A stretch of 32,000 nucleotides of DNA, from assembly GCF_003367075.2 (NCBI RefSeq), contig NZ_CP065936.1:3270001-3302000 (forward strand). The letters run 5' to 3'. Shown piece by piece: positions 1 to 15,860 of the stretch. The notes beneath the pieces were generated by a model. That model saw only the letters and a list, made by a program, of their open reading frames with translations, had not been told where the DNA came from and did not search any database. Position 1 is the first letter of the stretch; the number at the start of each line of letters is the position of its first letter. This DNA comes from Cylindrospermopsis raciborskii Cr2010. Its GTDB lineage: Bacteria > Cyanobacteriota > Cyanobacteriia > Cyanobacteriales > Nostocaceae. Position numbers and translations under genes: made by a program.

Positions 1-734
1 CCATGGTAGTGTTTGGGAGACCCAAGGGTCACCGGGGGTCTTATCGACAGTGGGAAGAGGATAATATTCCCCCCCAGGTGGTGTTTGAAATTTTATCTCC
101 TGGTAATAATAATACTGAGATGGACAGAAAAAAGCTCTTTTATCTAGAACATGGAGTGGAGGAGTATTATGTATATGATCCAGATAGGATTAGTCTAGAA
201 GTATCCATTAGGGAAAATAACTCATTTAAGGAAATTGAGAATTTTACCACTTGGACCAGCCCAAGATTGAAAATAAGATTTGACATGAGCCAAGATGAAT
301 TAGTCATCTATTATCCAGATGGGAGTAAGTTTCTTAGTCCTGTAGAATTGAGTAATTATGCAGAACAAGAAAGATTTCTCAAAGAACAAGAAACTCAACG
401 TGCAGAACGTGAAAAATTGCTTAAAGAGCAAGAAACCCAACGTGCAGAACGTGAAAAATTGCTTAAAGAGCAAGAAACCCAACGTGCAGAACGTGAAAGA
501 CTTATCAAAGAACAAGAAACTCAACGTGCAGAACGCGAAAGACTTCTCAAAGAGCAGGAAACTCAACGTGCAGAACAAGAAACTCAACGTGCAGAACGTG
601 AAAGACTTCTCAAAGAGCAGGAAACTCAACGTGCAGAACGTGAAAGACTTCTCAAAGAGCAGGAACAAATAAAGTATCAAACCTTGCTATCACAATTAAA
701 AGCTAAGGGTATTGATATTACTGCACTCGAATAA
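1..734 (+). CDS. Uma2-family (DUF820, PD-(D/E)xK) endonuclease with C-terminal E/R/K-rich repeat tract; array copy 0, 5' end cut by the window
   Basis: The frame is open from the window edge to TAA 732-734. The protein matches the C-terminal 243 aa of the full copies and includes the Uma2 core ..PPQVVFEILSPGNNNTEMDRKKLFYLEHGVEEYYVYDP... It has 7 QETQRAE motifs. Confidence 0.9.
   Translation, partial: MVVFGRPKGHRGSYRQWEEDNIPPQVVFEILSPGNNNTEMDRKKLFYLEHGVEEYYVYDPDRISLEVSIRENNSFKEIENFTTWTSPRLKIRFDMSQDELVIYYPDGSKFLSPVELSNYAEQERFLKEQETQRAEREKLLKEQETQRAEREKLLKEQETQRAERERLIKEQETQRAERERLLKEQETQRAEQETQRAERERLLKEQETQRAERERLLKEQEQIKYQTLLSQLKAKGIDITALE
360..668 (+). repeat. 42-bp (14-aa) coding VNTR, copy 0: 7 QETQRAE motifs
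   Basis: Units caagaaac(t/c)caacgtgcagaacg(t/c)gaaa(aattgctt/gacttctc)aaagag, with one 21-bp half unit. Confidence 0.95.
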
Positions 735-800
735 ACTATTACCTCCACCAGAATACCCTTGGGAGGTTTTTAAAAACTGGAGTTTATACTAAAGAGAAGA

Positions 801-1040
801 GCGATTGGGAAGCACTCCCTACGGGAGCTGGCGAAACACTCTCTATGGGAGCTCCCCAGGGGATTAACCATAATTGTTTAAATTAACCCCTACCTGGAGA
901 CTGTTTGTGGGGGAGACCGGTCTCAAAGCGAAAGTCAGTTTAAAACCGACTAGTTTTGTCGTGGGTAATCGTAGGTTGGGTTGAGGCACGAAACCCAACA
1001 AACCAACCGGATATATATAAATGCGATTGACTCCATACAG
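801..1040 (+). repeat. Optional 240-bp spacer module A (present in long spacers only)
   Basis: It starts at gcgattgggaagcactccctacgggag and ends just before the paralogous gcgattgcgaagcactccctacgggag of module B. Other copies: 3599-3838, 5109-5348, 6710-6946, 9711-9950, 12429-12668, 13929-14168, and a truncated copy at 15408-15516. It is absent from the short spacers 2319-2612, 8364-8657 and 11208-11501. It contains the palindrome gagaccggtctc, the hairpin agtcagtttaaaaccgact and the hairpin GTTGGGTTgaggcacgAAACCCAAC. Confidence 0.9.
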
Positions 1041-1158
1041 GCGATTGCGAAGCACTCCCTACGGGAGATCGCCAATTACCCGTTATTGTTTAAATTAATC
1101 CATACCTGGAGACTGTCTATTGGGGAGACCGGGAATCAATTTTGGGTCTCAAAGCGAA

Positions 1159-1186
1159 AGTCGGTTTAAAACCGACTGGTTTTGTG
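1159..1186 (+). terminator. Terminator-like hairpin followed by GGTTTTGTG; representative of one per cassette
   Basis: agtcggtttaaaaccgact is a 7-9 bp stem followed by a U-rich tract. It lies about 100 nt upstream of each Uma2 ATG and could insulate each cassette from read-through. No transcript data are available. Confidence 0.4.
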
Positions 1187-1231
1187 ATATTGTAAGTTGA
1201 GTTCAATAACTCAACATCCCTAAACAAACTA

Positions 1232-1240
1232 TGTTATATT
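1232..1240 (+). promoter_or_regulatory. Extended -10-like box TGtTATATT; representative, at the same offset in every cassette
   Basis: It lies 44-52 nt upstream of the ATG. No convincing -35 hexamer is visible at 17-bp spacing. The call is inferred from sequence only. Confidence 0.3.
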
Positions 1241-1270
1241 AAATTAAACCGATTAAGTCAGTACCAAAGT

Positions 1271-1276
1271 GGGAGG
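1271..1276 (+). promoter_or_regulatory. Shine-Dalgarno GGGAGG, 7 nt before ATG 1284; representative and conserved in all ten visible gene starts
   Basis: The context is aaagtGGGAGGtatagacATG, identical in all cassettes. Confidence 0.75.
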
Positions 1277-1283
1277 TATAGAC

Positions 1284-2318
1284 ATGGTGAGGCAAATTCC
1301 ATCAAAAACTCAACTGGGGGTGATAAAATCTAACACTAATCAGGGTGTGGAGACGCCTAAAATTGTCTACCCAGAAAGTGATAATAAACCTATGGCGGAT
1401 AACACTAGACAATTTACATGGATTGTCAAAATTAAGGAAAATTTAGAAATACTATTTAAGTCCAATGCGGATGTGTTTGTGGCTGGGGACTTATTTTGGT
1501 ATCCAGTGGAGGGTAGTAACAAAATTAAACTAGCCCCTGACACCATGGTAGTGTTTGGGAGACCCAAGGGGCACCGGGGGTCTTATCGACAGTGGGAAGA
1601 GAATAATATTCCACCCCAGGTGGTGTTTGAAATTTTATCTCCTGGTAATAATAATACTGAGATGGACAGAAAAAAGCTCTTTTATCTAGAACATGGAGTG
1701 GAGGAGTATTATGTATATGATCCAGATAGGATTAGTCTAGAAGTATCCATTAGGGAAAATAACTCATTTAAGGAAATTGAGAATTTTACCACTTGGACCA
1801 GTCCAAGATTGAAAATAAGATTTGACATGAGCCAAGATGAATTAGTCATCTATTATCCAGATGGGAGTAAGTTTCTTAGTCCTGTAGAATTGAGTAATTA
1901 TGCAGAACAAGAAAGATTTCTCAAAGAACAAGAAACTCAACGTGCAGAACGTGAAAAATTGCTTAAAGAGCAAGAAACTCAACGTGCAGAACGTGAAAAA
2001 TTGCTTAAAGAGCAAGAAACCCAACGTGCAGAACGTGAAAGACTTATCAAAGAACAAGAAACTCAACGTGCAGAACGCGAAAGACTTCTCAAAGAGCAGG
2101 AAACTCAACGTGCAGAACAAGAAACTCAACGTGCAGAACGTGAAAGACTTCTCAAAGAGCAGGAAACTCAACGTGCAGAACGTGAAAGACTTCTCAAAGA
2201 GCAGGAAACTCAACGTGCAGAACGTGAAAGACTTCTCAAAGAGCAGGAACAAATAAAGTATCAAACCTTGCTATCACAATTAAAAGCTAAGGGTATTGAT
2301 ATTACTGCACTCGAATAA
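1284..2318 (+). CDS. Uma2-family endonuclease, array copy 1 (intact, longest intact repeat tract)
   Basis: The ORF track gives 1269-2318 (349 aa from GTG). ATG 1284 lies 7 nt after GGGAGG (1271-1276), and the GTG overlaps that SD, so ATG is preferred. Uma2 hallmarks: ADVFVAGDLFWYP, then VVFEILSP..D..KK..Y...GVEEYYVYDP (acidic/E-x-S-P/K pattern of the PD-(D/E)xK core). There are 8 QETQRAE motifs, then the tail YQTLLSQLKAKGIDITALE. Confidence 0.92.
   Translation: MVRQIPSKTQLGVIKSNTNQGVETPKIVYPESDNKPMADNTRQFTWIVKIKENLEILFKSNADVFVAGDLFWYPVEGSNKIKLAPDTMVVFGRPKGHRGSYRQWEENNIPPQVVFEILSPGNNNTEMDRKKLFYLEHGVEEYYVYDPDRISLEVSIRENNSFKEIENFTTWTSPRLKIRFDMSQDELVIYYPDGSKFLSPVELSNYAEQERFLKEQETQRAEREKLLKEQETQRAEREKLLKEQETQRAERERLIKEQETQRAERERLLKEQETQRAEQETQRAERERLLKEQETQRAERERLLKEQETQRAERERLLKEQEQIKYQTLLSQLKAKGIDITALE
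1902..2252 (+). repeat. 42-bp coding VNTR, copy 1: 8 motifs (351 bp)
   Basis: Unit order is ERFLK, EKLLK, EKLLK, ERLIK, ERLLK, half unit, ERLLK, ERLLK, ERLLK. Confidence 0.95.
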
Positions 2319-2324
2319 ACTATT

Positions 2325-2355
2325 ACCTCCACCAGAATACCCTTGGGAGGTTTTT
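2325..2355 (+). terminator. Weak post-stop hairpin plus T5 run; representative of the one found after each Uma2 stop
   Basis: ACCTCC-(15 nt)-GGAGGT followed by TTTTTAAAAA, 7 nt after the TAA. The stem is only 6 bp and is broken in the cctgcacc variants (3541, 6652, 15351). Confidence 0.3.
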
Positions 2356-2627
2356 AAAAACTGGAGTTTATACTAAAGAGAAGAGCGATTGCGAAGCACT
2401 CCCTACGGGAGATCGCCAATTACCCGTTATTGTTTAAATTAATCCATACCTGGAGACTGTCTGTGGGGGAGACCGGGAATCAATTCTGGGTCTCAAAGCG
2501 AAAGTCGGTTTAAAACCGACTGGTTTTGTGATATTGTAAGTTGAGTTCAATAACTCAACATCCCTAAACAAACTATGTTATATTAAATTAAACCGATTAA
2601 GTCAGTACCAAAGTGGGAGGTATAGAC

Positions 2628-3532
2628 ATGGTGAGGCAAATTCCATCAAAAACTCAACTGGGGGTGATAGAATCTAACATTAGTCATGGTGTGGAGACGC
2701 CTAAAATTGTCTACCCAGAAAGTGATAATAAACCTATGGCGGATAACACTAGACAATTTACATGGATTGTCAAAATTAAGGAAAATTTAGAAATACTATT
2801 TAAGTCCAATGCAGATGTGTTTGTGGCTGGGGACTTATTTTGGTATCCAGTGGAGGTAGTAACAAAATTAAACTAGCCCCTGACACCATGGTAGTGTTTG
2901 GGAGACCCAAAGACTCGGGGTCTTATCTACAGTGGGAGGAGGATAATATTCCACCCCAGGTGGTGTTTGAAATTTTATCTCCTGGTAATAATAATACTGA
3001 GATGGACAGAAAAAAGCTCTTTTATCTGGAACATGGAGTGGAGGAGTATTATGTATATGATCCAGATAGGATTAGTCTAGAAGTATCCATTAGGGAAAAT
3101 AACTCATTTAAGGAAATTGAGAATTTTACCACTTGGACCAGTCCAAGATTGAAAATAAGATTTGACATGACCCAAGATGAATTAGTCATCTATTATCCAG
3201 ATGGGAGTAAGTTTCTTAGTCCTGTAGAATTGAGTAATTATGCAGAACAAGAAACTCAACGTGCAGAACGTGAAAAATTGCTTAAAGAGCAAGAAACTCA
3301 ACGTGCAGAACGTGAAAGACTTCTCAAAGAGCAAGAAACCCAACGTGCAGAACGTGAAAGACTTCTCAAAGAACAAGAAACTCAACGTGCAGAGCGTGAA
3401 AGACTTCTCAAAGAGCAGGAAACTCAACGTGCAGAACGCGAAAGACTTCTCAAAGAGCAGGAACAAATAAAGTATCAAACCTTGCTATCACAATTAAAAG
3501 CTAAGGGTATTGATATTACTGCACTCGAATAA
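2628..3532 (+). pseudogene. Uma2-family endonuclease, array copy 2, frame-disrupted (one -1 shift)
   Basis: Split into ORFs 2613-2876 and 2840-3532 by loss of one G (ggagggtag -> ggaggtag, 2855-2856). There is also an in-frame replacement KGHRGSYRQ -> KDSGSYLQ (about 2904-2930), and the first 21-bp half unit of the VNTR is absent. This may be a true frameshift or a homopolymer consensus error. Confidence 0.7.
3242..3466 (+). repeat. 42-bp coding VNTR, copy 2: 5 motifs (225 bp)
   Basis: It lacks the leading ERFLKEQ half unit. Order is EKLLK followed by four ERLLK. Confidence 0.95.
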
Positions 3533-4081
3533 ACTATTACCTGCACCAGAATACCCTTGGGAGGTTTTTAAAAACTGGAGTTTATACTAAAGAGAAGAGC
3601 GATTGGGAAGCACTCCCTACGGGAGCTGGCGAAACACTCTCTATGGGAGCTCCCCAGGGGATTAACCATAATTGTTTAAATTAACCCCTACCTGGAGACT
3701 GTCTGTGGGAGAGACCGGTCTCAAAGCGAAAGTCAGTTTAAAACCGACTAGTTTTGTCATGGGTAATCGTAGGTTGGGTTGAGGCACGAAACCCAACAAA
3801 CCAACCGGATATATATAAATGCGATTGACTCCATACAGGCGATTGCGAAGCACTCCCTAGGGGAGATCGCCAATTACCCGTTATTGTTTAAATTAATCCA
3901 TACCTGGAGACTGTCTGTGGGGGAGACCGGGAATCAATTTTGGGTCTCAAAGCGAAAGTCGGTTTTAAACCGACTGGTTTTGTGATATTGTAAGTTGAGT
4001 TCAATAACTCAACATCCCTAAACAAACTATGTTATATTAAATTAAACCGATTAAGTCAGTACCAAAGTGGGAGGTATAGAC

Positions 4082-5045
4082 ATGGTGAGGCAAATTCCAT
4101 CAAAAACTCAACTGGGGGTGATAGAATCTAACATTAGTCATGGTGTGGAGACGCCTAAAATTGTCTACCCAGAAAGTGATAATAAACCTATGGCGGATAA
4201 CACTAGACAATTTACATGGATTGTCAAAATTAAGGAAAATTTAGAAATACTATTTAAGTCCAATGCGGATGTGTTTGTGTGGGGACTTATTTTGGTATCC
4301 AGTGGAGGTAGTAACAAAATTAAACTAGCCCTGACACCATGGTAGTGTTTGGGAGACCCAAGGGTCACCGGGGTCTTATCGACAGTGGGAAGAGAATAAT
4401 ATTCCACCCAGGTGGTGTTTGAAATTTTATCTCCTGGTAATAATAATACTGAGATGGACAGAAAAAAGCTCTTTATCTAGAACATGGAGTGGAGGAGTAT
4501 TATGTATATGATCCAGATAGGATTAGTCTAGAAGTATCCATTAGGAAAATAACTCATTTAAGGAGATTGAGAATTTTACCACTTGGACCAGTCCAAGATT
4601 GAAAATAAGATTTGACATGAGCCAAGATGAATTAGTCATCTATTATCCAGATGGGAGTAAGTTTCTTAGTCCTGTAGAATTGAGTAATTATGCAGAACAA
4701 GAAAGATTTCTCAAAGAACAAGAAACTCAACATGCAGAACGTGAAAAATTGCTTAAAGAGCAAGAAACTCAACGTGCAGAACGCGAAAGACTTCTCAAAG
4801 AGCAGGAAACCCAACGTGCAGAACGTGAAAAATTGCTTAAAGAGCAAGAAACTCAACGTGCAGAACGCGAAAGACTTCTCAAAGAGCAGGAAACCCAACG
4901 TGCAGAACGTGAAAAATTGCTTAAAGAGCAAGAAACTCAACGTGCAGAACGTGAAAGACTTCTCAAAGAGCAGGAACAAATAAAGTATCAAACCTTGCTA
5001 TCACAATTAAAAGCTAAGGGTATTGATATTACTGCACTCGAATAA
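4082..5045 (+). pseudogene. Uma2-family endonuclease, array copy 3, multiply frame-disrupted
   Basis: Only fragments are open (4067-4345, 4599-5045). Relative to intact copies there is a 2-nt loss near 4279. There are also single-base contractions of G, C, G, C, T and G runs near 4307, 4330, 4371, 4408, 4473 and 4545. One QETQHAE substitution is present. Confidence 0.7.
4692..4979 (+). repeat. 42-bp coding VNTR, copy 3: 6 motifs (288 bp)
   Basis: Alternating EKLLK/ERLLK order, the same as copy 6. Confidence 0.95.
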
Positions 5046-5591
5046 ACTATTACCTCCACCAGAATACCCTTGGGAGGTTTTAAAACTGGGTTTATACTAA
5101 AGAGAAGAGCGATTGGGAAGCACTCCCTACGGGAGCTGGCGAAACACTCTCTATGGGAGCTCCCCAGGGGATTAACCATAATTGTTTAAATTAACCCCTA
5201 CCTGGAGACTGTCTGTGGGAGAGACCGGTCTCAAAGCGAAAGTCAGTTTAAAACCGACTAGTTTTGTCATGGGTAATCGTAGGTTGGGTTGAGGCACGAA
5301 ACCCAACAAACCAACCGGATATATATAAATGCGATTGACTCCATACAGGCGATTGCGAAGCACTCCCTAGGGGAGATCGCCAATTACCCGTTATTGTTTA
5401 AATTAATCCATACCTGGAGACTGTCTGTGGGGGAGACCGGGAATCAATTTTGGGTCTCAAAGCGAAAGTCGGTTTTAAACCGACTGGTTTTGTGATATTG
5501 TAAGTTGAGTTCAATAACTCAACATCCCTAAACAAACTATGTTATATTAAATTAAACCGATTAAGTCAGTACCAAAGTGGGAGGTATAGAC

Positions 5592-6643
5592 ATGGTGAGG
5601 CAAATTCCATCAAAAACTCAACTGGGGGTGATAAAATCTAACACTAATCAGGGTGTGGAGACGCCTAAAATTGTCTACCCAGAAAGTGATAATAAACCTA
5701 TGGCGGATAACACTAGACAATTTACATGGATTGTCAAAATTAAGGAAAATTTAGAAATACTATTTAAGTCTAATGCGGATGTGTTTGTGGCTGGGGACTT
5801 ATTTTGGTATCCAGTGGAGGGTAGTAACAAAATTAAACTAGCCCCTGACACCATGGTGGTGTTTGGGAGACCAAGAGAGCTCGGGGTCTTATCGACAGTG
5901 GGAAGAGAATAATATTCGACCCCAGGTGGTGTTTGAAATTTTATCTCCTGGTAATAATAATACTGAGATGGACAGAAAAAGCTCTTTATCTAGAACATGG
6001 AGTGGAGGAGTATTATGTATATGATCCAGATAGGATTAGTCTAGAAGTATCCATTAGGGAAAATAACTCATTTAAGGAGATTGAGAATTTTACCACTTGG
6101 ACCAGTCCAAGATTGAAAATAAGATTTGACATGAGCCAAGATGAATTAGTCATCTATTATCCAGATGGGAGTAAGTTTCTTAGTCCTGTAGAATTGAGTA
6201 ATTATGCAGAACAAGAAAGATTTCTCAAAGAACAAGAAACTCAACGTGCAGAACGTGAAAAATTGCTTAAAGAGCAAGAAACCCAACGTGCAGAACGTGA
6301 AAGACTTCTCAAAGAACAAGAAACTCAACGTGCAGAACGTGAAAGACTTATCAAAGAACAAGAAACTCAACGTGCAGAACGCGAAAGACTTCTCAAAGAG
6401 CAGGAAACTCAACGTGCAGAACGTGAAAGACTTCTCAAAGAGCAGGAAACTCAACGTGCAGAACGTGAAAGACTTCTCAAAGAGCAGGAAACTCAACGTG
6501 CAGAACAAGAAAGATTTCTCAAAGAACAAGAAACTCAACGTGCAGAACGTGAAAGACTTCTCAAAGAGCAGGAACAAATAAAGTATCAAACCTTGCTATC
6601 ACAATTAAAAGCTAAGGGTATTGATATTACTGCACTCGAATAA
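5592..6643 (+). pseudogene. Uma2-family endonuclease, array copy 4, frame-disrupted
   Basis: ORFs are 5577-5912 and 5933-6643. The segment 5871-5885 is scrambled and 2 nt shorter (..agaccaagagagctcggggtc..). A6->A5 occurs near 5976 and T4->T3 near 5985. The C-terminal part is otherwise intact, with 8 QETQRAE motifs. Confidence 0.7.
6206..6577 (+). repeat. 42-bp coding VNTR, copy 4: 8 motifs (372 bp)
   Basis: Contains ERLIK and an internal QERFLK unit, like copy 7. Confidence 0.95.
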
Positions 6644-7189
6644 ACTATTACCTGCACCAGAATACCCTTGGGAGGTTTTTAAAAACTGGAGTTTATACTA
6701 AAGAGAAGAGCGATTGGGAAGCACTCCCTACGGGAGCTGGCGAAACACTCTCTATGGGAGCCTCCCAGGGATTAACCATAATTGTTTAAATTAACCCCTA
6801 CCTGGAGACTGTCTGTGGGGAGACCGGTCTCAAAGCGAAAGTCAGTTTAAAACCGACTAGTTTTGTCGTGGTAATCGTAGGTTGGGTTGAGGCACGAAAC
6901 CCAACAAACCAACCGGATATATATAAATGCGATTGACTCCATACAGGCGATTGCGAAGCACTCCCTACGGGAGATCGCCAATTACCCGTTATTGTTTAAA
7001 TTAATCCATACCTGGAGACTGTCTGTGGGGGAGACCGGGAATCAATTTTGGGTCTCAAAGCGAAAGTCGGTTTTAAACCGACTGGTTTTGTGATATTGTA
7101 AGTTGAGTTCAATAACTCAACATCCCTAAACAAACTATGTTATATTAAATTAAACCGATTAAGTCAGTACCAAAGTGGGAGGTATAGAC

Positions 7190-8363
7190 ATGGTGAGGCA
7201 AATTCCATCAAAAACTCAACTGGGGGTGATAAAATCTAACACTAATCAGGGTGTGGAGACGCCTAAAATTGTCTACCCAGAAAGTGATAATAAACCTATG
7301 GCGGATAACACTAGACAATTTACATGGATTGTCAAAATTAAGGAAAATTTAGAAATACTATTTAAGTCTAATGCGGATGTGTTTGTGGCTGGGGACTTAT
7401 TTTGGTATCCAGTGGAGGGTAGTAACAAAATTAAACTAGCCCCTGACACCATGGTAGTGTTTGGGAGACCCAAGGCACTGGGGTCTTATCGACAGTGGGA
7501 AGAGAATAATATTCACCCAGGTGGTGTTTGAAATTTTATCTCCTGGTAATAATAATACTGAGATGGACAGAAAAAGCTCTTTTATCTAGAACATGGAGTG
7601 GAGGAGTATTATGTATATGATCCAGATAGGATTAGTCTAGAAGTATCCATTAGGAAAATAACTCATTTAAGGAGATTGAGAATTTTACCACTTGGACCAG
7701 TCCAAGATTGAAAATAAGATTTGACATGAGCCAAGATGAATTAGTCATCTATTATCCAGATGGGAGTAAGTTTCTTAGTCCTGTAGAATTGAGTAATTAT
7801 GCAGAACAAGAAAGATTTCTCAAAGAACAAGAAACTCAACGTGCAGAACGTGAAAAATTGCTTAAAGAGCAAGAAACTCAACGTGCAGAACGTGAAAAAT
7901 TGCTAAAGAGCAAGAAACCCAACGTGCAGAACGTGAAAGACTTATCAAAGAACAAGAAACTCAACGTGCAGAACGCGAAAGACTTCTCAAAGAGCAGGAA
8001 ACTCAACGTGCAGAACAAGAAACTCAACGTGCAGAACGTGAAAAATTGCTTAAAGAGCAAGAAACCCAACGTGCAGAACGTGAAAGACTTATCAAAGAAC
8101 AAGAAACTCAACGTGCAGAACGCGAAAGACTTCTCAAAGAGCAGGAAACTCAACGTGCAGAACAAGAAACTCAACGTGCAGAACGTGAAAGACTTCTCAA
8201 ACAGCAGGAAACTCAACGTGCAGAACGTGAAAGACTTCTCAAACAGCAGGAAACTCAACGTGCAGAACGTGAAAGACTTCTCAAAGAGCAGGAACAAATA
8301 AAGTATCAAACCTTGCTATCACAATTAAAAGCTAAGGGTATTGATATTACTGCACTCGAATAA
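7190..8363 (+). pseudogene. Uma2-family endonuclease, array copy 5, frame-disrupted; longest VNTR
   Basis: ORFs are 7175-7531, 7708-8301 and 8046-8363. Lesions: an in-frame 3-nt loss (KALGSY, about 7475), a 2-nt loss in attccacccc (about 7513-7519), A6->A5 (about 7572), GGG->GG (about 7653), and a T loss inside the VNTR (ttgcttaaag -> ttgctaaag, about 7904). Confidence 0.7.
7801..8297 (+). repeat. 42-bp coding VNTR, copy 5: 12 motifs (497 bp, includes a 1-nt deletion)
   Basis: Contains a higher-order 147-bp block (EKLLK-ERLIK-ERLLK-half unit) present twice, at 7891-8036 and 8037-8183. Two units read KQQETQRAE. Confidence 0.95.
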
Positions 8364-8672
8364 ACTATTACCTCCACCAGAATACCCTTGGGAGGTTTTT
8401 AAAAACTGGAGTTTATACTAAAGAGAAGAGCGATTGCGAAGCACTCCCTACGGGAGATCGCCAATTACCCGTTATTGTTTAAATTAATCCATACCTGGAG
8501 ACTGTCTGTGGGGGAGACCGGGAATCAATTTTGGGTCTCAAAGCGAAAGTCGGTTTTAAACCGACTGGTTTTGTGATATTGTAAGTTGAGTTCAATAACT
8601 CAACATCCCTAAATAAACTATGTTATATTAAATTAAACCGATTAAGTCAGTACCAAAGTGGGAGGTATAGAC

Positions 8673-9644
8673 ATGGTGAGGCAAATTCCATCAAAAACTC
8701 AACTGGGGGTGATAGAATCTAACATTAGTCAGGGTGTGGAGACGCCTAAAATTGTCTACCCAGAAAGTGATAATAAACCTATGGCGGATAACACTAGACA
8801 ATTTACATGGATTGTCAAAATTAAGGAAAATTTAGAAATACTATTTAAGTCCAATGCGGATGTGTTTGTGGCTGGGGACTTATTTTGGTATCCAGTGGAG
8901 GGTAGTAACAAAATTAAACTAGCCCCTGACACCATGGTAGTGTTTGGGAGACCCAAGGGGCACCGGGGGTCTTATCGACAGTGGGAAGAGAATAATATTC
9001 CACCCCAGGTGGTGTTTGAAATTTTATCTCCTGGTAATAATAATACTGAGATGGACAGAAAAAAGCTCTTTTATCTAGAACATGGAGTGGAGGAGTATTA
9101 TGTATATGATCCAGATAGGATTAGTCTAGAAGTATCCATTAGGGAAAATAACTCATTTAAGGAGATTGAGAATTTTACCACTTGGACCAGTCCAAGATTG
9201 AAAATAAGATTTGACATGAGCCAAGATGAATTAGTCATCTATTATCCAGATGGGAGTAAGTTTCTTAGTCCTGTAGAATTGAGTAATTATGCAGAACAAG
9301 AAAGATTTCTCAAAGAACAAGAAACTCAACGTGCAGAACGTGAAAAATTGCTTAAAGAGCAAGAAACTCAACGTGCAGAACGCGAAAGACTTCTCAAAGA
9401 GCAGGAAACCCAACGTGCAGAACGTGAAAAATTGCTTAAAGAGCAAGAAACTCAACGTGCAGAACGCGAAAGACTTCTCAAAGAGCAGGAAACCCAACGT
9501 GCAGAACGTGAAAAATTGCTTAAAGAGCAAGAAACTCAACGTGCAGAACGTGAAAGACTTCTCAAAGAGCAGGAACAAATAAAGTATCAAACCTTGCTAT
9601 CACAATTAAAAGCTAAGGGTATTGATATTACTGCACTCGAATAA
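8673..9644 (+). CDS. Uma2-family endonuclease, array copy 6 (intact)
   Basis: Continuous ORF 8658-9644 (328 aa from GTG). ATG 8673 follows the GGGAGG SD. Core motifs match copy 1. N-terminal patch ESNISQ; 6 QETQRAE motifs in alternating EKLLK/ERLLK order. Confidence 0.92.
   Translation: MVRQIPSKTQLGVIESNISQGVETPKIVYPESDNKPMADNTRQFTWIVKIKENLEILFKSNADVFVAGDLFWYPVEGSNKIKLAPDTMVVFGRPKGHRGSYRQWEENNIPPQVVFEILSPGNNNTEMDRKKLFYLEHGVEEYYVYDPDRISLEVSIRENNSFKEIENFTTWTSPRLKIRFDMSQDELVIYYPDGSKFLSPVELSNYAEQERFLKEQETQRAEREKLLKEQETQRAERERLLKEQETQRAEREKLLKEQETQRAERERLLKEQETQRAEREKLLKEQETQRAERERLLKEQEQIKYQTLLSQLKAKGIDITALE
9291..9578 (+). repeat. 42-bp coding VNTR, copy 6: 6 motifs (288 bp)
   Basis: Alternating EKLLK/ERLLK units. 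Confidence 0.95.
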
Positions 9645-10193
9645 ACTATTACCTCCACCAGAATACCCTTGGGAGGTTTTTAAAAACTGGAGTTTATACT
9701 AAAGAGAAGAGCGATTGCGAAGCACTCCCTACGGGAGCTGGCGAAACACTCTCTATGGGAGCTCCCCAGGGGATTAACCATAATTGTTTAAATTAACCCC
9801 TACCTGGAGACTGTCTGTGGGAGAGACCGGTCTCAAAGCGAAAGTCAGTTTAAAACCGACTAGTTTTGTCATGGGTAATCGTAGGTTGGGTTGAGGCACG
9901 AAACCCAACAAACCAACCGGATATATATAAATGCGATTGACTCCATACAGGCGATTGCGAAGCACTCCCTAGGGGAGATCGCCAATTACCCGTTATTGTT
10001 TAAATTAATCCATACCTGGAGACTGTCTGTGGGGGAGACCGGGAATCAATTTTGGGTCTCAAAGCGAAAGTCGGTTTTAAACCGACTGGTTTTGTGATAT
10101 TGTAAGTTGAGTTCAATAACTCAACATCCCTAAATAAACTATGTTATATTAAATTAAACCGATTAAGTCAGTACCAAAGTGGGAGGTATAGAC

Positions 10194-11207
10194 ATGGTGA
10201 GGCAAATTCCATCAAAAACTCAACTGGGGGTGATAGAATCTAACATTAGTCAGGGTGTGGAGACGCCTAAAATTGTCTACCCAGAAAGTGATAATAAACC
10301 TATGGCGGATAACACTAGACAATTTACATGGATTGTCAAAATTAAGGAAAATTTAGAAATACTATTTAAGTCCAATGCGGATGTGTTTGTGGCTGGGGAC
10401 TTATTTTGGTATCCAGTGGAGGGTAGTAACAAAATTAAACTAGCCCCTGACACCATGGTAGTGTTTGGGAGACCCAAGGGGCACCGGGGGTCTTATCGAC
10501 AGTGGGAAGAGAATAATATTCCACCCCAGGTGGTGTTTGAAATTTTATCTCCTGGTAATAATAATACTGAGATGGACAGAAAAAAGCTCTTTTATCTAGA
10601 ACATGGAGTGGAGGAGTATTATGTATATGATCCAGATAGGATTAGTCTAGAAGTATCCATTAGGGAAAATAACTCATTTAAGGAAATTGAGAATTTTACC
10701 ACTTGGACCAGCCCAAGATTGAAAATAAGATTTGACATGAGCCAAGATGAATTAGTCATCTATTATCCAGATGGGAGTAAGTTTCTTAGTCCTGTAGAAT
10801 TGAGTAATTATGCAGAACAAGAAAGATTTCTCAAAGAACAAGAAACTCAACGTGCAGAACGTGAAAAATTGCTTAAAGAGCAAGAAACCCAACGTGCAGA
10901 ACGTGAAAAATTGCTTAAAGAGCAAGAAACCCAACGTGCAGAACGTGAAAGACTTATCAAAGAACAAGAAACTCAACGTGCAGAACGTGAAAGACTTCTC
11001 AAAGAGCAGGAAACTCAACGTGCAGAACGTGAAAGACTTCTCAAAGAGCAGGAAACTCAACGTGCAGAACAAGAAAGATTTCTCAAAGAACAAGAAACTC
11101 AACGTGCAGAACGTGAAAGACTTCTCAAAGAGCAGGAACAAACAAAGTATCAAACCTTGCTATCACAATTAAAAGCTAAGGGTATTGATATTACTGCACT
11201 CGAATAA
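10194..11207 (+). CDS. Uma2-family endonuclease, array copy 7 (intact)
   Basis: Continuous ORF 10179-11207 (342 aa from GTG). SD plus ATG 10194. N-terminal patch ESNISQ; 7 QETQRAE motifs. Private change EQIKYQ -> EQTKYQ. Confidence 0.92.
   Translation: MVRQIPSKTQLGVIESNISQGVETPKIVYPESDNKPMADNTRQFTWIVKIKENLEILFKSNADVFVAGDLFWYPVEGSNKIKLAPDTMVVFGRPKGHRGSYRQWEENNIPPQVVFEILSPGNNNTEMDRKKLFYLEHGVEEYYVYDPDRISLEVSIRENNSFKEIENFTTWTSPRLKIRFDMSQDELVIYYPDGSKFLSPVELSNYAEQERFLKEQETQRAEREKLLKEQETQRAEREKLLKEQETQRAERERLIKEQETQRAERERLLKEQETQRAERERLLKEQETQRAEQERFLKEQETQRAERERLLKEQEQTKYQTLLSQLKAKGIDITALE
10812..11141 (+). repeat. 42-bp coding VNTR, copy 7: 7 motifs (330 bp)
   Basis: Order is ERFLK, EKLLK, EKLLK, ERLIK, ERLLK, ERLLK, QERFLK, ERLLK. 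Confidence 0.95.
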
Positions 11208-11516
11208 ACTATTACCTCCACCAGAATACCCTTGGGAGGTTTTTAAAAACTGGAGTTTATACTAAAGAGAAGAGCGATTGCGAAGCACTCCCTAGGGGAG
11301 ATCGCCAATTACCCGTTATTGTTTAAATTAATCCATACCTGGAGACTGTCTGTGGGGGAGACCGGGAATCAATTCTGGGTCTCAAAGCGAAAGTCGGTTT
11401 AAAACCGACTGGTTTTGTGATATTGTAAGTTGAGTTCAATAACTCAACATCCCTAAACAAACTATGTTATATTAAATTAAACCGATTAAGTCAGTACCAA
11501 AGTGGGAGGTATAGAC

Positions 11517-12362
11517 ATGGTGAGGCAAATTCCATCAAAAACTCAACTGGGGGTGATAGAATCTAACATTAGTCATGGTGTGGAGACGCCTAAAATTGTC
11601 TACCCAGAAAGTGATAATAAACCTATGGCGGATAACACTAGACAATTTACATGGATTGTCAAAATTAAGGAAAATTTAGAAATACTATTTAAGTCCAATG
11701 CGGATGTGTTTGTGGCTGGGGACTTATTTTGGTATCCAGTGGAAGGTAGTAACAAAATTAAACTAGCCCCTGACACCATGGTAGTGTTTGGGAGACCCAA
11801 GGGGCACCGGGGGTCTTATCGACAGTGGGAAGAGAATAATATTCCCCCCCAGGTGGTGTTTGAAATTTTATCTCCTGGTAATAATAATACTGAGATGGAC
11901 AGAAAAAAGCTCTTTTATCTGGAACATGGAGTGGAGGAGTATTATGTATATGATCCAGATAGGATTAGTCTAGAAGTATCCATTAGGGAAAATAACTCAT
12001 TTAAGGAGATTGAGAATTTTACCACTTGGACCAGTCCAAGATTGAAAATAAGATTTGACATGAGCCAAGATGAATTAGTCATCTATTATCCAGATGGGAG
12101 TAAGTTTCTTAGTCCTGTAGAATTGAGTAATTATGCAGAACAAGAAAGATTTCTCAAAGAACAAGAAACTCAACGTGCAGAACGTGAAAAATTGCTTAAA
12201 GAGCAAGAAACTCAACGTGCAGAACGTGAAAAATTGCTTAAAGAGCAAGAAACCCAACGTGCAGAACGTGAAAGACTTCTCAAAGAGCAGGAACAAATAA
12301 AGTATCAAACCTTGCTATCACAATTAAAAGCTAAGGGTATTGATATTACTGCACTCGAATAA
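11517..12362 (+). CDS. Uma2-family endonuclease, array copy 8 (intact, shortest repeat tract)
   Basis: Continuous ORF 11502-12362 (286 aa from GTG). SD plus ATG 11517. N-terminal patch ESNISH; only 3 QETQRAE motifs. Confidence 0.92.
   Translation: MVRQIPSKTQLGVIESNISHGVETPKIVYPESDNKPMADNTRQFTWIVKIKENLEILFKSNADVFVAGDLFWYPVEGSNKIKLAPDTMVVFGRPKGHRGSYRQWEENNIPPQVVFEILSPGNNNTEMDRKKLFYLEHGVEEYYVYDPDRISLEVSIRENNSFKEIENFTTWTSPRLKIRFDMSQDELVIYYPDGSKFLSPVELSNYAEQERFLKEQETQRAEREKLLKEQETQRAEREKLLKEQETQRAERERLLKEQEQIKYQTLLSQLKAKGIDITALE
12135..12296 (+). repeat. 42-bp coding VNTR, copy 8: 3 motifs (162 bp)
   Basis: The shortest tract: ERFLK, EKLLK, EKLLK, ERLLK. Confidence 0.95.
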
Positions 12363-12911
12363 ACTATTACCTCCACCAGAATACCCTTGGGAGGTTTTTA
12401 AAAACTGGAGTTTATACTAAAGAGAAGAGCGATTGGGAAGTACTCCCTACGGGAGCTGGCGAAACACTCTCTATGGGAGCTCCCCAGGGGATTAACCATA
12501 ATTGTTTAAATTAACCCCTACCTGGAGACTGTCTGTGGGGGAGACCGGTCTCAAAGCGAAAGTCAGTTTAAAACTGACTAGTTTTGTCGTGGGTAATCGT
12601 AGGTTGGGTTGAGGCACGAAACCCAACAAACCAACCGGATATATATAAATGCGATTGACTCCATACAGGCGATTGCGAAGCACTCCCTAGGGGAGATCGC
12701 CAATTACCCGTTATTGTTTAAATTAATCCATACCTGGAGACTGTCTGTGGGGGAGACCGGGAATCAATTTTGGGTCTCAAAGCGAAAGTCGGTTTAAAAC
12801 CGACTGGTTTTGTGATATTGTAAGTTGAGTTCAATAACTCAACATCCCTAAACAAACTATGTTATATTAAATTAAACCGATTAAGTCAGTACCAAAGTGG
12901 GAGGTATAGAC

Positions 12912-13862
12912 ATGGTGAGGCAAATTCCATCAAAAACTCAACTGGGGGTGATAGAATCTAACATTAGTCATGGTGTGGAGACGCCTAAAATTGTCTACCC
13001 AGAAAGTGATAATAAACCTATGGCGGATAACACTAGACAATTTACATGGATTGTCAAAATTAAGGAAAATTTAGAAATACTATTTAAGTCCAATGCGGAT
13101 GTGTTTGTGGCTGGGGACTTATTTTGGTATCCAGTGGAGGGTAGTAACAAAATTAAACTAGCCCCTGACACCATGGTAGTGTTTGGGAGACCCAAGGGTC
13201 ACCGGGGGTCTTATCGACAGTGGGAAGAGGATAATATTCCCCCCCAGGTGGTGTTTGAAATTTTATCTCCTGGTAATAATAATACTGAGATGGACAGAAA
13301 AAAGCTCTTTTATCTAGAACATGGAGTGGAGGAGTATTATGTATATGATCCAGATAGGATTAGTCTAGAAGTATCCATTAGGGAAAATAACTCATTTAAG
13401 GAGATTGAGAATTTTACCACTTGGACCAGTCCAAGATTGAAAATAAGATTTGACATGAGCCAAGATGAATTAGTCATCTATTATCCAGATGGGAGTAAGT
13501 TTCTTAGTCCTGTAGAATTGAGTAATTATGCAGAACAAGAAAGATTTCTCAAAGAACAAGAAACTCAACGTGCAGAACGTGAAAAATTGCTTAAAGAGCA
13601 AGAAACTCAACGTGCAGAACGCGAAAGACTTCTCAAAGAGCAGGAAACCCAACGTGCAGAACGTGAAAAATTGCTTAAAGAACAAGAAACTCAACGTGCA
13701 GAACGCGAAAGACTTCTCAAAGAGCAGGAAACTCAACGTGCAGAACAAGAAACTCAACGTGCAGAACGTGAAAGACTTCTCAAAGAGCAGGAACAAATAA
13801 AGTATCAAACCTTGCTATCACAATTAAAAGCTAAGGGTATTGATATTACTGCACTCGAATAA
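12912..13862 (+). CDS. Uma2-family endonuclease, array copy 9 (intact)
   Basis: Continuous ORF 12897-13862 (321 aa from GTG). SD plus ATG 12912. N-terminal patch ESNISH with the EEDN variant; 6 QETQRAE motifs including one 7-aa half unit. Confidence 0.92.
   Translation: MVRQIPSKTQLGVIESNISHGVETPKIVYPESDNKPMADNTRQFTWIVKIKENLEILFKSNADVFVAGDLFWYPVEGSNKIKLAPDTMVVFGRPKGHRGSYRQWEEDNIPPQVVFEILSPGNNNTEMDRKKLFYLEHGVEEYYVYDPDRISLEVSIRENNSFKEIENFTTWTSPRLKIRFDMSQDELVIYYPDGSKFLSPVELSNYAEQERFLKEQETQRAEREKLLKEQETQRAERERLLKEQETQRAEREKLLKEQETQRAERERLLKEQETQRAEQETQRAERERLLKEQEQIKYQTLLSQLKAKGIDITALE
13530..13796 (+). repeat. 42-bp coding VNTR, copy 9: 6 motifs (267 bp)
   Basis: Includes one 21-bp half unit (QETQRAEQETQRAE). 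Confidence 0.95.
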
Positions 13863-14411
13863 ACTATTACCTCCACCAGAATACCCTTGGGAGGTTTTTA
13901 AAAACTGGAGTTTATACTAAAGAGAAGAGCGATTGGGAAGCACTCCCTACGGGAGCTGGCGAAACACTCTCTATGGGAGCTCCCCAGGGGATTAACCATA
14001 ATTGTTTAAATTAACCCCTACCTGGAGACTGTCTGTGGGAGAGACCGGTCTCAAAGCGAAAGTCAGTTTAAAACCGACTAGTTTTGTCATGGGTAATCGT
14101 AGGTTGGGTTGAGGCACGAAACCCAACAAACCAACCGGATATATATAAATGCGATTGACTCCATACAGGCGATTGCGAAGCACTCCCTAGGGGAGATCGC
14201 CAATTACCCGTTATTGTTTAAATTAATCCATACCTGGAGACTGTCTGTGGGGGAGACCGGGAATCAATTTTGGGTCTCAAAGCGAAAGTCGGTTTTAAAC
14301 CGACTGGTTTTGTGATATTGTAAGTTGAGTTCAATAACTCAACATCCCTAAACAAACTATGTTATATTAAATTAAACCGATTAAGTCAGTACCAAAGTGG
14401 GAGGTATAGAC

Positions 14412-15341
14412 ATGGTGAGGCAAATTGCACCAAAAACTCAACTGGGGGTGATAAAATCTAACACTAATCAGGGTGTGGAGACGCCTAAAATTGTCTACCC
14501 AGAAAGTGATAATAAACCTATGGCGGATAACACTAGACAATTTACATGGATTGTCAAAATTAAGGAAAATTTAGAAATACTATTTAAGTATAATGCGGAT
14601 GTGTTTGTGGCTGGGGACTTATTTTGGTATCCAGTGGAGGGTAGTAACAAAATTAAACTAGCCCCTGACACCATGGTAGTGTTTGGGAGACCCAAGGGGC
14701 ACCGGGGGTCTTATCAACAGTGGGAAGAGAATAATATTCCCCCCCAGGTGGTGTTTGAAATTTTATCTCCTGGTAATAATAATACTGAGATGGACAGAAA
14801 AAAGCTCTTTTATCTAGAACATGGAGTGGAGGAGTATTATGTATATGATCCAGATAGGATTAGTCTAGAAGTATCCATTAGGGAAAATAACTCATTTAAG
14901 GAGATTGAGAATTTTACCACTTGGACCAGTCCAAGATTGAAAATAAGATTTGACATGAGCCAAGATGAATTAGTCATCTATTATCCAGATGGGAGTAAGT
15001 TTCTTAGTCCTGTAGAATTGAGTAATTATGCAGAACAAGAAAGATTTCTCAAAGAACAAGAAACTCAACGTGCAGAACGTGAAAAATTGCTTAAAGAGCA
15101 AGAAACCCAACGTGCAGAACGTGAAAGACTTCTCAAAGAACAAGAAACTCAACGTGCAGAACGTGAAAGACTTCTCAAAGAACAAGAAACTCAACGTGCA
15201 GAACGTGAAAGACTTCTCAAAGAGCAGGAAACTCAACGTGCAGAACGTGAAAGACTTCTCAAAGAGCAGGAACAAATAAAGTATCAAACCTTGCTATCAC
15301 AATTAAGGGCTAAGGGTATTGATATTACTGCACTCGAATAA
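14412..15341 (+). CDS. Uma2-family endonuclease, array copy 10 (intact, terminal and most divergent copy)
   Basis: Continuous ORF 14397-15341 (314 aa from GTG). SD plus ATG 14412. N-terminal patch KSNTNQ; 5 QETQRAE motifs. Private substitutions: QIAPKT, FKYNAD, SYQQWE, QLRAKG. Confidence 0.92.
   Translation: MVRQIAPKTQLGVIKSNTNQGVETPKIVYPESDNKPMADNTRQFTWIVKIKENLEILFKYNADVFVAGDLFWYPVEGSNKIKLAPDTMVVFGRPKGHRGSYQQWEENNIPPQVVFEILSPGNNNTEMDRKKLFYLEHGVEEYYVYDPDRISLEVSIRENNSFKEIENFTTWTSPRLKIRFDMSQDELVIYYPDGSKFLSPVELSNYAEQERFLKEQETQRAEREKLLKEQETQRAERERLLKEQETQRAERERLLKEQETQRAERERLLKEQETQRAERERLLKEQEQIKYQTLLSQLRAKGIDITALE
15030..15275 (+). repeat. 42-bp coding VNTR, copy 10: 5 motifs (246 bp)
   Basis: Order is ERFLK, EKLLK, then four ERLLK. 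Confidence 0.95.
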
Positions 15342-15612
15342 ACTATTACCTGCACCAGAATACCCTTGGGAGGTTTTTAAAAACTGGAGTTTATACTAAA
15401 GAGAAGAGCGATTGGGAAGTACTCCCTACGGGAGCTGGCGAAACACTCTCTATGGGAGCTCCCCAGGGGATTAACCATAATTGTTTAAATTAACCCCTAC
15501 CTGGAGACTGTCTGTGCTATATGCTCCTAAACTACCGCCAAGTACCTCCTGGTTAACTATCTCTATTAGGGGTAATGCTCCTTGTCAAGTATTTGCCAAA
15601 ACCCGATTATTT

Positions 15613-15673
15613 GTAGGATGGGTTAGGGGTAACCCATGGGGGCGTTGGGTTTCATGCTTCAACCCAACCTACG
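15613..15673. repeat. Two short hairpin repeats of the dispersed cyanobacterial type, inverted relative to the array copies
   Basis: GGGTTAggggTAACCC, then GTTGGGTTtcatgcttcAACCCAACCTACG. The second is the reverse orientation of the CGTAGGTTGGGTT..AACCCAAC found in module A. Confidence 0.7.
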
Positions 15674-15772
15674 TTAATAGCCGTTTTCAGACCATAATGG
15701 ACAGCATGTCGCACCATGTCCGCCCACAATCACTAAATCGTAATCAAATCCAGAAGTCTCACCTGATCTCAA
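15674..15772 (-). pseudogene. 32-codon N-terminal stub of a Rossmann-fold FAD/NAD(P)-binding oxidoreductase (gene remnant)
   Basis: My own translation from TTG 15772 gives LRSGETSGFDYDLVIVGGHGATCCPLWSENGY, then TAA (15674-15676). FDYDLVIVGG-x-G resembles the beta-alpha-beta dinucleotide-binding start of FAD oxidoreductases. The frame ends exactly where the hairpin repeat begins. The stub is too short to be functional. Confidence 0.35.
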
Positions 15773-15860
15773 GTTACCATCGGGCAATTACTAAAAAGAG
15801 CAACTAGAAAAAATTTATCCACTGGTTGTTTAATGAAGATGTGAATTAAACACATTTGTA

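Follow-up and report, generated by a model that had tools for sequence, protein, structure and literature searches.

The stretch of DNA analyzed here, which we call the window, is 32,000 nucleotides of the bloom-forming cyanobacterium Cylindrospermopsis (Raphidiopsis) raciborskii Cr2010 (NZ_CP065936.1, positions 3,270,001 to 3,302,000). Its left part, positions 1 to ~15516 on the forward strand, is the right-hand end of a tandem array of genes of the Uma2 (DUF820) family, in which 11 copies lie head to tail with no other gene between them. Each macro-unit consists of a gene of ~0.86-1.05 kb followed by a spacer of 294 bp or of 531-534 bp, and each gene encodes a nuclease-type domain, a repetitive charged tract whose length is the main difference between copies, and a short conserved tail. 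The array extends leftward beyond the window edge, and on the right it ends ~172 nt past the stop codon of copy 10, where the spacer diverges into unique DNA. For its size we have lower bounds, namely at least 11 copies in the window and, in strain G7, at least 18 over 25 kb. The closest protein matches, from C. raciborskii and C. curvispora, were all annotated as Uma2 family endonucleases. Our subject is the variable tract and the origin of its length differences. The copies in the window are as follows.

Copy 0, 3-734 (+): truncated by the window edge; tract 363-674 (14.86 heptads), tail and stop codon 675-734.
Copy 1, 1269-2318 (+): intact, 349 aa from a GTG, with a likely ATG start at 1284; tract 1905-2258 (118 aa, 8 QETQRAE motifs).
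Copy 2, 2613-3532 (+): frame disrupted by small nuclease-domain indels, the tract (3245-3472) staying in frame; its orthologue in the complete genome CP091284 is intact.
Copy 3, 4067-5045 (+): frame broken by several 1-2-bp deletions; tract 4695-4985, with one QETQHAE unit.
Copy 4, 5577-6643 (+): frame broken; tract 6209-6583 (17.86 heptads); the CP091284 orthologue is the intact 351-aa protein P0001.
Copy 5, 7175-8363 (+): frame broken in the nuclease domain and in the tract (1-bp deletion near 7894); tract 7804-8303, the longest (23.8 heptads), containing a duplicated 147-bp block.
Copy 6, 8658-9644 (+): intact, 328 aa; tract 9294-9584, with a heptad string identical to that of copy 3.
Copy 7, 10179-11207 (+): intact, 342 aa; tract 10815-11147, with an identical heptad string in the CP091284 locus (L004).
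Copy 8, 11502-12362 (+): intact, 286 aa, the shortest; tract 12138-12302 (55 aa, 3 QETQRAE motifs).
Copy 9, 12897-13862 (+): intact, 321 aa; tract 13533-13802.
Copy 10, 14397-15341 (+): intact, 314 aa; tract 15033-15281; tail variant SQLRAKG.

These protein lengths are counted from the GTG. An ATG 15 nt downstream, preceded by GGAGG and used as the start in NCBI gene calls for other strains, is the likely start codon, and the true proteins would therefore be 5 aa shorter than listed.

All 11 copies carried the tract between the same two anchors, ELSNYA on the nuclease side and YQTLLSQL(K/R)AKGIDITALE at the C terminus. The distance between the anchors ranged from 165 to 500 bp, and in every copy but copy 5, with its 1-bp deletion, it was 18 mod 21 bp. 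A first-pass annotation, made from the letters of this DNA, had described 42-bp units followed by an invariant tail. We recovered the units and the anchors in every copy, but the real unit is a 21-bp block encoding one heptad, with two types in alternation, and the tail is not strictly invariant, as copy 10 shows a K-to-R change. The two heptads are EQETQRA and ERERLLK (variants EREKLLK, ERERLIK, and EQERFLK). EQETQRA was encoded by five synonymous DNA variants over 70 units, nonsynonymous versions being rare (3 further units), and the second heptad varied only conservatively (K/R, L/I, L/F, and R/Q). The tract began with EQERFLK-EQETQRA in nearly all copies and ended with EQETQRA-ERERLLK-EQEQIK, the last unit reading EQEQTK in copy 7. 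These edges were conserved (Fa...aB$ in our unit maps), whereas the interior held block duplications of 42, 84, and 147 bp; Tandem Repeats Finder (TRF) reported periods of 42, 63, 84, 105, and 147 bp with 83-98% matches. Such a pattern, with the edges conserved and the variation inside, is typical of slippage or misaligned recombination.

The facts stated in the first-pass annotation all held up, with small corrections. The counts of QETQRAE in copies 0 to 10 were 7, 8, 5, 5 (6 if the single QETQHAE is added), 8, 12, 6, 7, 3, 6, and 5, which agrees with the earlier list, although the 12 of copy 5 holds only once the 1-bp deletion is corrected. The six intact open reading frames (ORFs) are 286, 314, 321, 328, 342, and 349 aa and differ by multiples of 7 aa, and the order of unit subtypes does differ from copy to copy. 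The span of the tract in intact copies, given earlier as 54-117 aa, is corrected to 55-118 aa. Because the unit is 21 bp, length steps of 7 aa are expected, and alone they say nothing about selection. Additional ORFs that the tract shows in its other frames and on its minus strand were rejected as by-products of a stop-free repeat, and a Pfam match to FAZ1_C was attributed to compositional similarity among E/R/K-rich repeats.

The N-terminal domain scored 59.3-59.6 bits against the Pfam Uma2 model (PF05685; cut-off 27, E ~4e-16). Its sequence was matched by phmmer to PDB entries 6OKH, 9Y1L, and 3OT2, and a Foldseek search with the AlphaFold2 model of copy 8 returned 9Y1L, 6OKH, 3OT2, and 1WDJ, with a probability of 1.00 and E values of 2e-8 to 2e-6. 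In the models, a compact alpha/beta domain occupies residues ~32-204. Across 44 diverse family members, including the window copies, D91, E111, and E121 were invariant, and K135 and S124 nearly so. The Pfam score and the Foldseek matches support the nuclease-type fold proposed at first pass and show that the macro-units encode a Uma2 (DUF820/TT1808) protein of predicted PD-(D/E)XK fold, with putative nuclease activity. An NCBIfam search of the protein returned nothing meaningful. The domain also matched three PADLOC PDC-S03 models (E values of 2.8e-10 to 7.7e-8); PDC-S03 is an untested defence candidate, and its models, of 184-207 positions, cover the nuclease domain only.

To our knowledge, few uncharacterised nuclease-fold families in cyanobacteria are as abundant as Uma2/DUF820, which has several crystal structures and no known function. 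Its abundance in cyanobacteria and its occurrence as cassettes of paralogues have been described, and it has been proposed as a likely solo toxin (PMC2701414). The cassettes of that account consist of adjacent paralogues without an antitoxin partner (Makarova et al. 2009, PMC2701414), as is also the case here, although unlike known cassettes this one has grown to at least 11-18 near-identical copies. The ~205 N-terminal residues correspond to the family model (PF05685, COG4636) and to the folds of 1WDJ, 3OT2, 6OKH, and 9Y1L. Solved members are ~150-190 aa long and have no stalk, whereas the proteins described here, along with a large subfamily, add a heptad-repeat stalk and a conserved C-terminal end-piece. 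Our literature search, which covered Uma2/DUF820 with Cylindrospermopsis, tandem arrays, and family function, found no account of the array, the stalk, or the tail. Paralogue cassettes of Uma2 were known; the heptad-repeat stalk with its end-piece and the extreme, near-identical array do not appear in the literature searched.

Variation among the copies pointed to constraint on the nuclease domain. The ratio of nonsynonymous to synonymous polymorphism (pN/pS) was 0.31 over 55 intact N-terminal domains from four strains. In the folded part, every variant found in at least five copies was synonymous, and the common nonsynonymous variants lay in the low-confidence N-terminal leader. This purifying selection indicates that the genes are, or recently were, functional. 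Judged from its sequence, the stalk is constrained in character and not in length.

AlphaFold2, run on an alignment of 44-46 diverse family members, predicted a single long helix for the tract in both copies modeled. For copy 8, the predicted local distance difference test score (pLDDT) was 93.4, with one unbroken helix over residues 205-277 and a tract pLDDT of ~98; for copy 1 it was 90.9, with an unbroken helix over residues 205-340 and a tract pLDDT of ~98 that fell to 83 towards the tail. The helix takes in the first 12 tail residues and breaks at an invariant Gly. At 0.15 nm per residue, its predicted length would be ~11 nm to ~20 nm in the intact window copies. The first-pass annotation had named coiled coils and ER/K single helices for such a tract; the models support helix over disorder, and composition resembles the ER/K type, with 56% charged residues, ~0.4 opposite-charge i+3/i+4 pairs per residue, and no hydrophobic seam. 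In detail, the tract is 29% acidic and 27% basic (slightly net acidic), opposite-charge pairs per residue number 0.20 at i+4 and 0.21 at i+3, and like-charge i+4 pairs are absent.

The hydrophobic a/d positions of a canonical coiled coil were sparsely filled. The best a/d hydrophobic occupancy was 0.26-0.31, against 0.80 for the GCN4 control, which leaves at most 26-31% of such positions hydrophobic. The Leu, Leu, and Ala of each 14-residue unit fall at ~0, 100, and 180 degrees on a helical wheel and form no seam. In relatives, the tracts contain 0-3% bulky hydrophobic residues, and a/d occupancy, counting bulky residues only, is 0.00-0.36. Designed 7-residue AEEEXXX repeats form single alpha-helices (SAHs) (PMC5347031), and the relatives' heptad A-E-Q-E-R-Q-R resembles them. 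The charge pairs, the low a/d occupancy, the lack of a seam, and these AEEEXXX-like heptads favour an SAH, which on present modeling is the most likely form of the stalk, and the helix would be monomeric. Like the ER/K SAH domains of myosin VI/X, INCENP, and CAF-1 KER, the stalk is rich in E, R, and K, has dense i+3/i+4 pairs and no seam, and would join two functional parts through one long (here predicted) helix. Unlike them, it is Gln-rich, carries a Leu-Leu pair per 14 residues, and is slightly acidic; its length varies between paralogues through a coding minisatellite, and its helix is known by prediction.

The tail, 19 aa long, forms a conserved amphipathic end-piece of the stalk, YQTLLSQLKAKGIDITALE, which may serve as a docking or dimerisation element. 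It had no Pfam or NCBIfam match, and a profile search of the PDB gave chance-level matches only. The best of these, to a YQNLLQKLREKGVDVDK stretch in the GFP-fusion entry 4JRB (E = 0.068), was not significant and was discarded. Each protein has only one Pfam domain plus the 19-aa tail, and we found no second recognition module.

This architecture is widespread in the family. An exhaustive search of 50%-identity representatives gave 3616 matches, 433 of them at E <= 1e-30. In hundreds of Uma2 clusters from cyanobacteria, Desulfobacterales, and Chromatiales, a charged tract of heptad period, ~12 to 114 aa or more in length, precedes a tail resembling LAAKLRELGIDPDxL, and almost all homologues combine the nuclease domain, a repetitive charged tract, and a peptide close to that sequence, with the protein ending 4-7 residues past the GIDP motif. 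Repeat units in relatives include QERQRAE, QEKERAE, QEYQRAE, AESRRAE, and ERERAAQ. Among 48 diverse representatives, the approximate tract length was 12-114 aa (median, 48), and self-similarity was best at a lag of 7, 14, or 21 aa in 40 of 45 tracts. A genome scan found single-copy homologues in Dolichospermum, Nostoc, Calothrix, Cuspidothrix, Cylindrospermum, an Oscillatoriales strain, Desulfobacterales metagenome-assembled genomes, and Lamprocystis. Such single-copy members, from Nostocales, Oscillatoriales, Desulfobacterales, and Lamprocystis, carry from 1 to ~17 heptads before a like tail. Because the single-copy orthologues of other genera span ~12 to 114 aa, constraint on stalk length appears weak. 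Across twelve single-copy loci we saw no neighbour gene that was conserved, in agreement with the earlier description of Uma2 as solo and cassette-forming and possibly a solo toxin (PMC2701414).

In some members the LAAKLRELGIDP tail is replaced (P0133, P0164, P0179, P0222, P0228, P0244, P0258, and P0270; and P0127, P0145, P0157, and P0204). The replacements end in ...LAELSRKARRGQASPEELAELERLE or consist of a longer ...GLSVEEVAATVGLSIE... segment, both of them conserved endings. As other conserved endings can take its place, the end-piece appears modular.

To the right of the array in the window lie two minus-strand genes, which confirm its chromosomal context.

15861-16772 (-): alpha/beta hydrolase.
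16931-30379 (-): giant cadherin/Calx-beta protein of 4482 aa.

Loci in other strains were taken from contigs encoding the matched proteins; a general scan of genome contigs gave no Cylindrospermopsis locus. The array lay beside the same hydrolase in the complete genome CP091284 and in three short-read drafts, in which the first copy is where the contigs break. In strain G7 (CP195152), a 25-kb region contained at least 18 consecutive copies; every one of the 18 in view was intact, with tracts of 2.86-20.86 heptads, and CP073250 had a similar array. Among 115 Cylindrospermopsis proteins with both anchors, the tract was 34-125 aa long, and its length was 6 mod 7 in 113.

Window copies 10, 9, 8, 7, 4, and 2 had exact heptad-string counterparts in CP091284, in the same order, and copies 3, 5, and 6 were extra in the window relative to that genome. 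G7 and CP073250 likewise had heptad strings in common and differed by whole copies. Divergence between the window strain and CP091284 was ~0.2%, in the hydrolase and in the array. Since the strings are identical and the strains differ by whole copies, gain and loss of whole units must be faster than change within the tract. Since orthologous copies of another strain carry identical strings, the lengths are not assembly noise, and the repeat-number differences reported at first pass are reproduced in independent assemblies.

The same comparison bears on bacterial contingency loci and other in-frame coding tandem repeats, with which the array has in common an in-gene repeat that changes copy number by slippage or recombination. 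The orthologous tracts of six copies were unchanged at ~0.2% divergence, giving no sign of hypermutability. Frame switching was also not seen, the unit being 21 bp and all tracts 18 mod 21 bp except in the frameshifted copy. Unlike contingency loci, then, these genes have 21-bp units, no on/off switching, and strings that are identical at 0.2% divergence, and the array protein has no signal for surface display.

Taking this evidence together, we consider it probable that the length variation reflects slippage and unequal exchange in the length-tolerant helical stalk of an amplified gene. The first-pass annotation had offered slippage and unequal exchange as its alternative to a functional series, and of its proposals this best fits the internal 42-, 84-, and 147-bp duplications. 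The stalk is encoded by a minisatellite that stays in frame, with 21-bp units of one heptad each, arranged here as 42-bp dimers. Replication slippage and misaligned recombination within this minisatellite would alter the number of heptads, and unequal crossing-over between the 1.2-1.7-kb macro-units would gain or lose whole genes, amplifying one gene into a long array. Selection would preserve the nuclease domain, the charged helical character of the stalk, and the end-piece, leaving length weakly constrained. Paralogues would then drift to many lengths, in 7-aa steps since the mutational unit is 21 bp. Each heptad step would add ~1.05 nm and about -20 degrees of twist, so that the end-piece would keep nearly the same facing; length changes may be tolerated because a heptad step barely re-orients it. 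On this basis we infer that the length diversity is mostly neutral.

The architecture common to a large Uma2 subfamily, in which a nuclease domain is followed by a charged helix of heptad period and very variable length and then by a conserved peptide at the C terminus, offers experimental handles in the tail peptide, the natural series of stalk lengths, and the distinction between single helix and coiled coil. The C. raciborskii array in particular is a natural allelic series in which the only variable is stalk length, in 7-residue steps.

It should also be said that several observations weigh against this account. Nearly all G7 copies are intact (18 of 18 in view), and several strains have the array at the same locus; each of these findings could reflect selection that keeps many lengths. 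As for the monomeric helix, an AlphaFold2 monomer prediction cannot separate a single alpha-helix from a dimeric coiled coil, helix-helix packing would also fit the strictness of the heptad period and the Ala (xRAEx) that different lineages conserve, solved Uma2 entries all have two chains, and a Leu-Leu pair each 14 residues, as in C. raciborskii, is atypical of ER/K helices.

The alternative that survives best is accordingly structural. The stalk could be a dimeric (or antiparallel, Ala-packed) coiled coil in a nuclease dimer, where only 7-residue steps would keep two stalks in register. The strict 7/14/21-aa periodicity across the family, the Ala conserved once per heptad in most lineages, the Leu-Leu pair, and the two chains of the solved Uma2 entries would all be in keeping with it. 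Even so, we regard a coiled coil as doubtful: the best a/d occupancies, both here and in relatives, are low, Leu, Leu, and Ala lie on different faces of the helix, and the 21-bp mutational unit alone accounts for the periodicity.

Another possibility is that the lengths themselves are adaptive. The first-pass annotation had suggested a ruler-like, graded series of spacings; the helical spacer that this presupposes is indeed predicted, but the ordered, nonredundant series of lengths is not there. Lengths are scattered along the array and identical ones recur, as in a 375/144/123-bp triplet repeated in G7. The graded ruler is thus unproven and less likely than tolerated slippage. In a looser form, the array would be a library that places the catalytic domain at ~1-nm steps, ~3-20 nm, from the target of the end-piece and so broadens reach or cutting, for instance in defence. 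Such a library would suit the many intact copies under purifying selection, the promoter-like and terminator-like signals that each copy has of its own, the retention of the array at one locus in several strains, the stable inheritance of distinct lengths, and the PADLOC PDC-S03 match. Heptad steps would moreover keep the angular phase of the end-piece. There is also a precedent: in the HsdS coiled coil, one TAEL repeat distinguishes EcoR124I from EcoR124II and shifts the recognised spacer from N6 to N7 (PMC7383803). Both cases involve an in-frame repeat in a helical spacer and discrete length steps, HsdS in a restriction-type system. HsdS, though, spaces two DNA-recognition domains in a multisubunit enzyme, whereas here there is one nuclease domain and a 19-aa end-piece, with no target recognition domain, methylase, or partner present.

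Other evidence also makes a length library unlikely. Lengths are duplicated within arrays, single-copy orthologues elsewhere are just as variable in length, and we found neither a second recognition module nor a partner gene. A net acidic stalk is unlikely to track along DNA. Finally, the persistence length of a single alpha-helix is ~100 residues (PMC5347031), which would blur 1-nm steps in long stalks, so the longer ones would not be rigid rulers at 1-nm resolution. A related and, in our estimation, likewise unlikely proposal is that the stalk is a selected diversity device, one nuclease held on single-helix stalks of ~3-20 nm that end in the same docking peptide and span a range of anchor distances. 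Were it true, the array would be a prokaryotic ruler library, its anchor being, e.g., a partner protein, membrane, or nucleoprotein complex, and a large Uma2 subfamily would have diversified in function chiefly through the length of its stalks.

The remaining explanations turn on the frame-broken copies, which make up 4 of the 10 full copies in the window (copies 2-5, 2613-8363). These copies (e.g., at 2908-2968, 4359-4420, 5873-5934, and 7471-7529) and the spacers between copies 3, 4, and 5 (5046-5576 and 6644-7174) show numerous clustered deletions of 1-3 bp where G, C, A, or T is repeated, and all four copies also have different lesions at one GGGCACCGGGGG site. Copies 0, 1, and 6-10 are free of such lesions, and the CP091284 orthologues of copies 2 and 4 are intact. 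This pattern suggests a locally poor consensus of a long-read assembly and not four independent decays; alternatively, the lesions could be real local decay or a mutational hot spot. Occasional broken copies also occur in CP091284 (L004) and CP073250 (L006). A C7 homopolymer in the nuclease domain (ATTCCCCCCCAGG), e.g., at 11840-11852, alternates among copies with an interrupted CCACCCC, and a C7-to-C6 change there is the sole frame-breaking lesion in one copy each of CP091284 (L004 ~11930) and CP073250 (L006 ~13240). That change could be either a homopolymer sequencing error or genuine slippage.

Taken at face value, the broken copies of the window, L004, and L006 could mark a selfish or decaying amplification, a recent and functionless array heading to pseudogenes in which tract variation is part of the decay. 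We think this very unlikely in view of the pN/pS of 0.31, the synonymous nature of all common folded-domain variants, the 18 intact copies of 18 in G7, the intact CP091284 orthologues of window copies 2 and 4, the synonymous or conservative changes in tract units, and the presence of the array across strains. Least credible of all is an assembly artefact, in which the repeat-number differences or the array itself would come from a misassembled collapsed repeat: short-read drafts do break at the array, and in copies 2-5 small indels cluster at G/C/A runs, both within genes and in spacers, but six copies recur with identical heptad strings and order in the independent complete genome CP091284, G7 and CP073250 have strings in common, all tracts save the one frameshifted copy are 18 mod 21 bp, and dozens of distinct lengths appear among NCBI, JGI, and ENA proteins. 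As a practical warning, the array breaks short-read assemblies and may gather consensus errors in long-read ones.

The spacers carry features of their own. The long form (531-534 bp), e.g., 12363-12896 (+), contains two diverged copies of a hairpin-rich leader module, and the short form (294 bp), e.g., 11208-11501 (+), lacks 240 bp of the long one. Their sequences are consistent with this 240-bp difference having arisen by recombination between the two modules. The module consists of a GGAGACCGG...GGTCTC stem and a AGTCGGTTTAAAACCGACT stem followed by T-rich sequence, with a folding z-score of -2.6. No RNA family was detected in the spacers by an Rfam scan (positions 1-16000, E <= 1), and the module could be a leader/terminator element or a small structured RNA. 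Terminator-like hairpins numbered 6, against 1.5 expected, and a sigma-70-like consensus match lies ~30 nt upstream of each gene.

12787-12805 (+), also 11392-11410 and 12561-12579: terminator-like hairpin with a T-rich run, one per short spacer and two per long spacer.
12839-12868 (+), also 11444-11473: sigma-70-like promoter match (TCAACA, 18 nt, TG-TATATT), a consensus match only.

Inverted repeats of the GTAGGTTGGGTT...AACCCAAC type occur in the long spacer (~12600-12640) and just beyond the array end (15481-15807 (+)), and give rise to a spurious ORF of 108 aa that includes VGWV...NPTY. In appearance they are small dispersed repeat elements and not genes.

The species has further cassettes of this subfamily at other loci. 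One locus (L088, 7013-17190) has two inverted Uma2 triplets flanking an HTH_17-PIN pair, beside a DDE transposase. Another (L089, 10001-15458) is an independent five-copy cassette whose domains are 96-99% identical and whose tracts differ; its spacers are 176-227 bp, and its heptads are of the EQANQRA type, as in Sphaerospermopsis. The closest homologue outside the genus, at 83% identity, came from a 1438-bp contig of Sphaerospermopsis aphanizomenoides (L007). This contig runs from the end of one gene through a spacer into the beginning of another copy, so a collapsed tandem array is probably present in that draft genome too.

Beyond the hydrolase, the giant cadherin/Calx-beta protein is 4482 aa here and 4787 aa in CP091284, and the two are only ~90% identical. 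Since the neighbouring hydrolase and Uma2 array are 99.8% identical between the same strains, this adhesin is a hypervariable gene. It contains tandem repeats of its own, at 18758-19397 and 27255-28168, in the form of 300-bp coding repeats.

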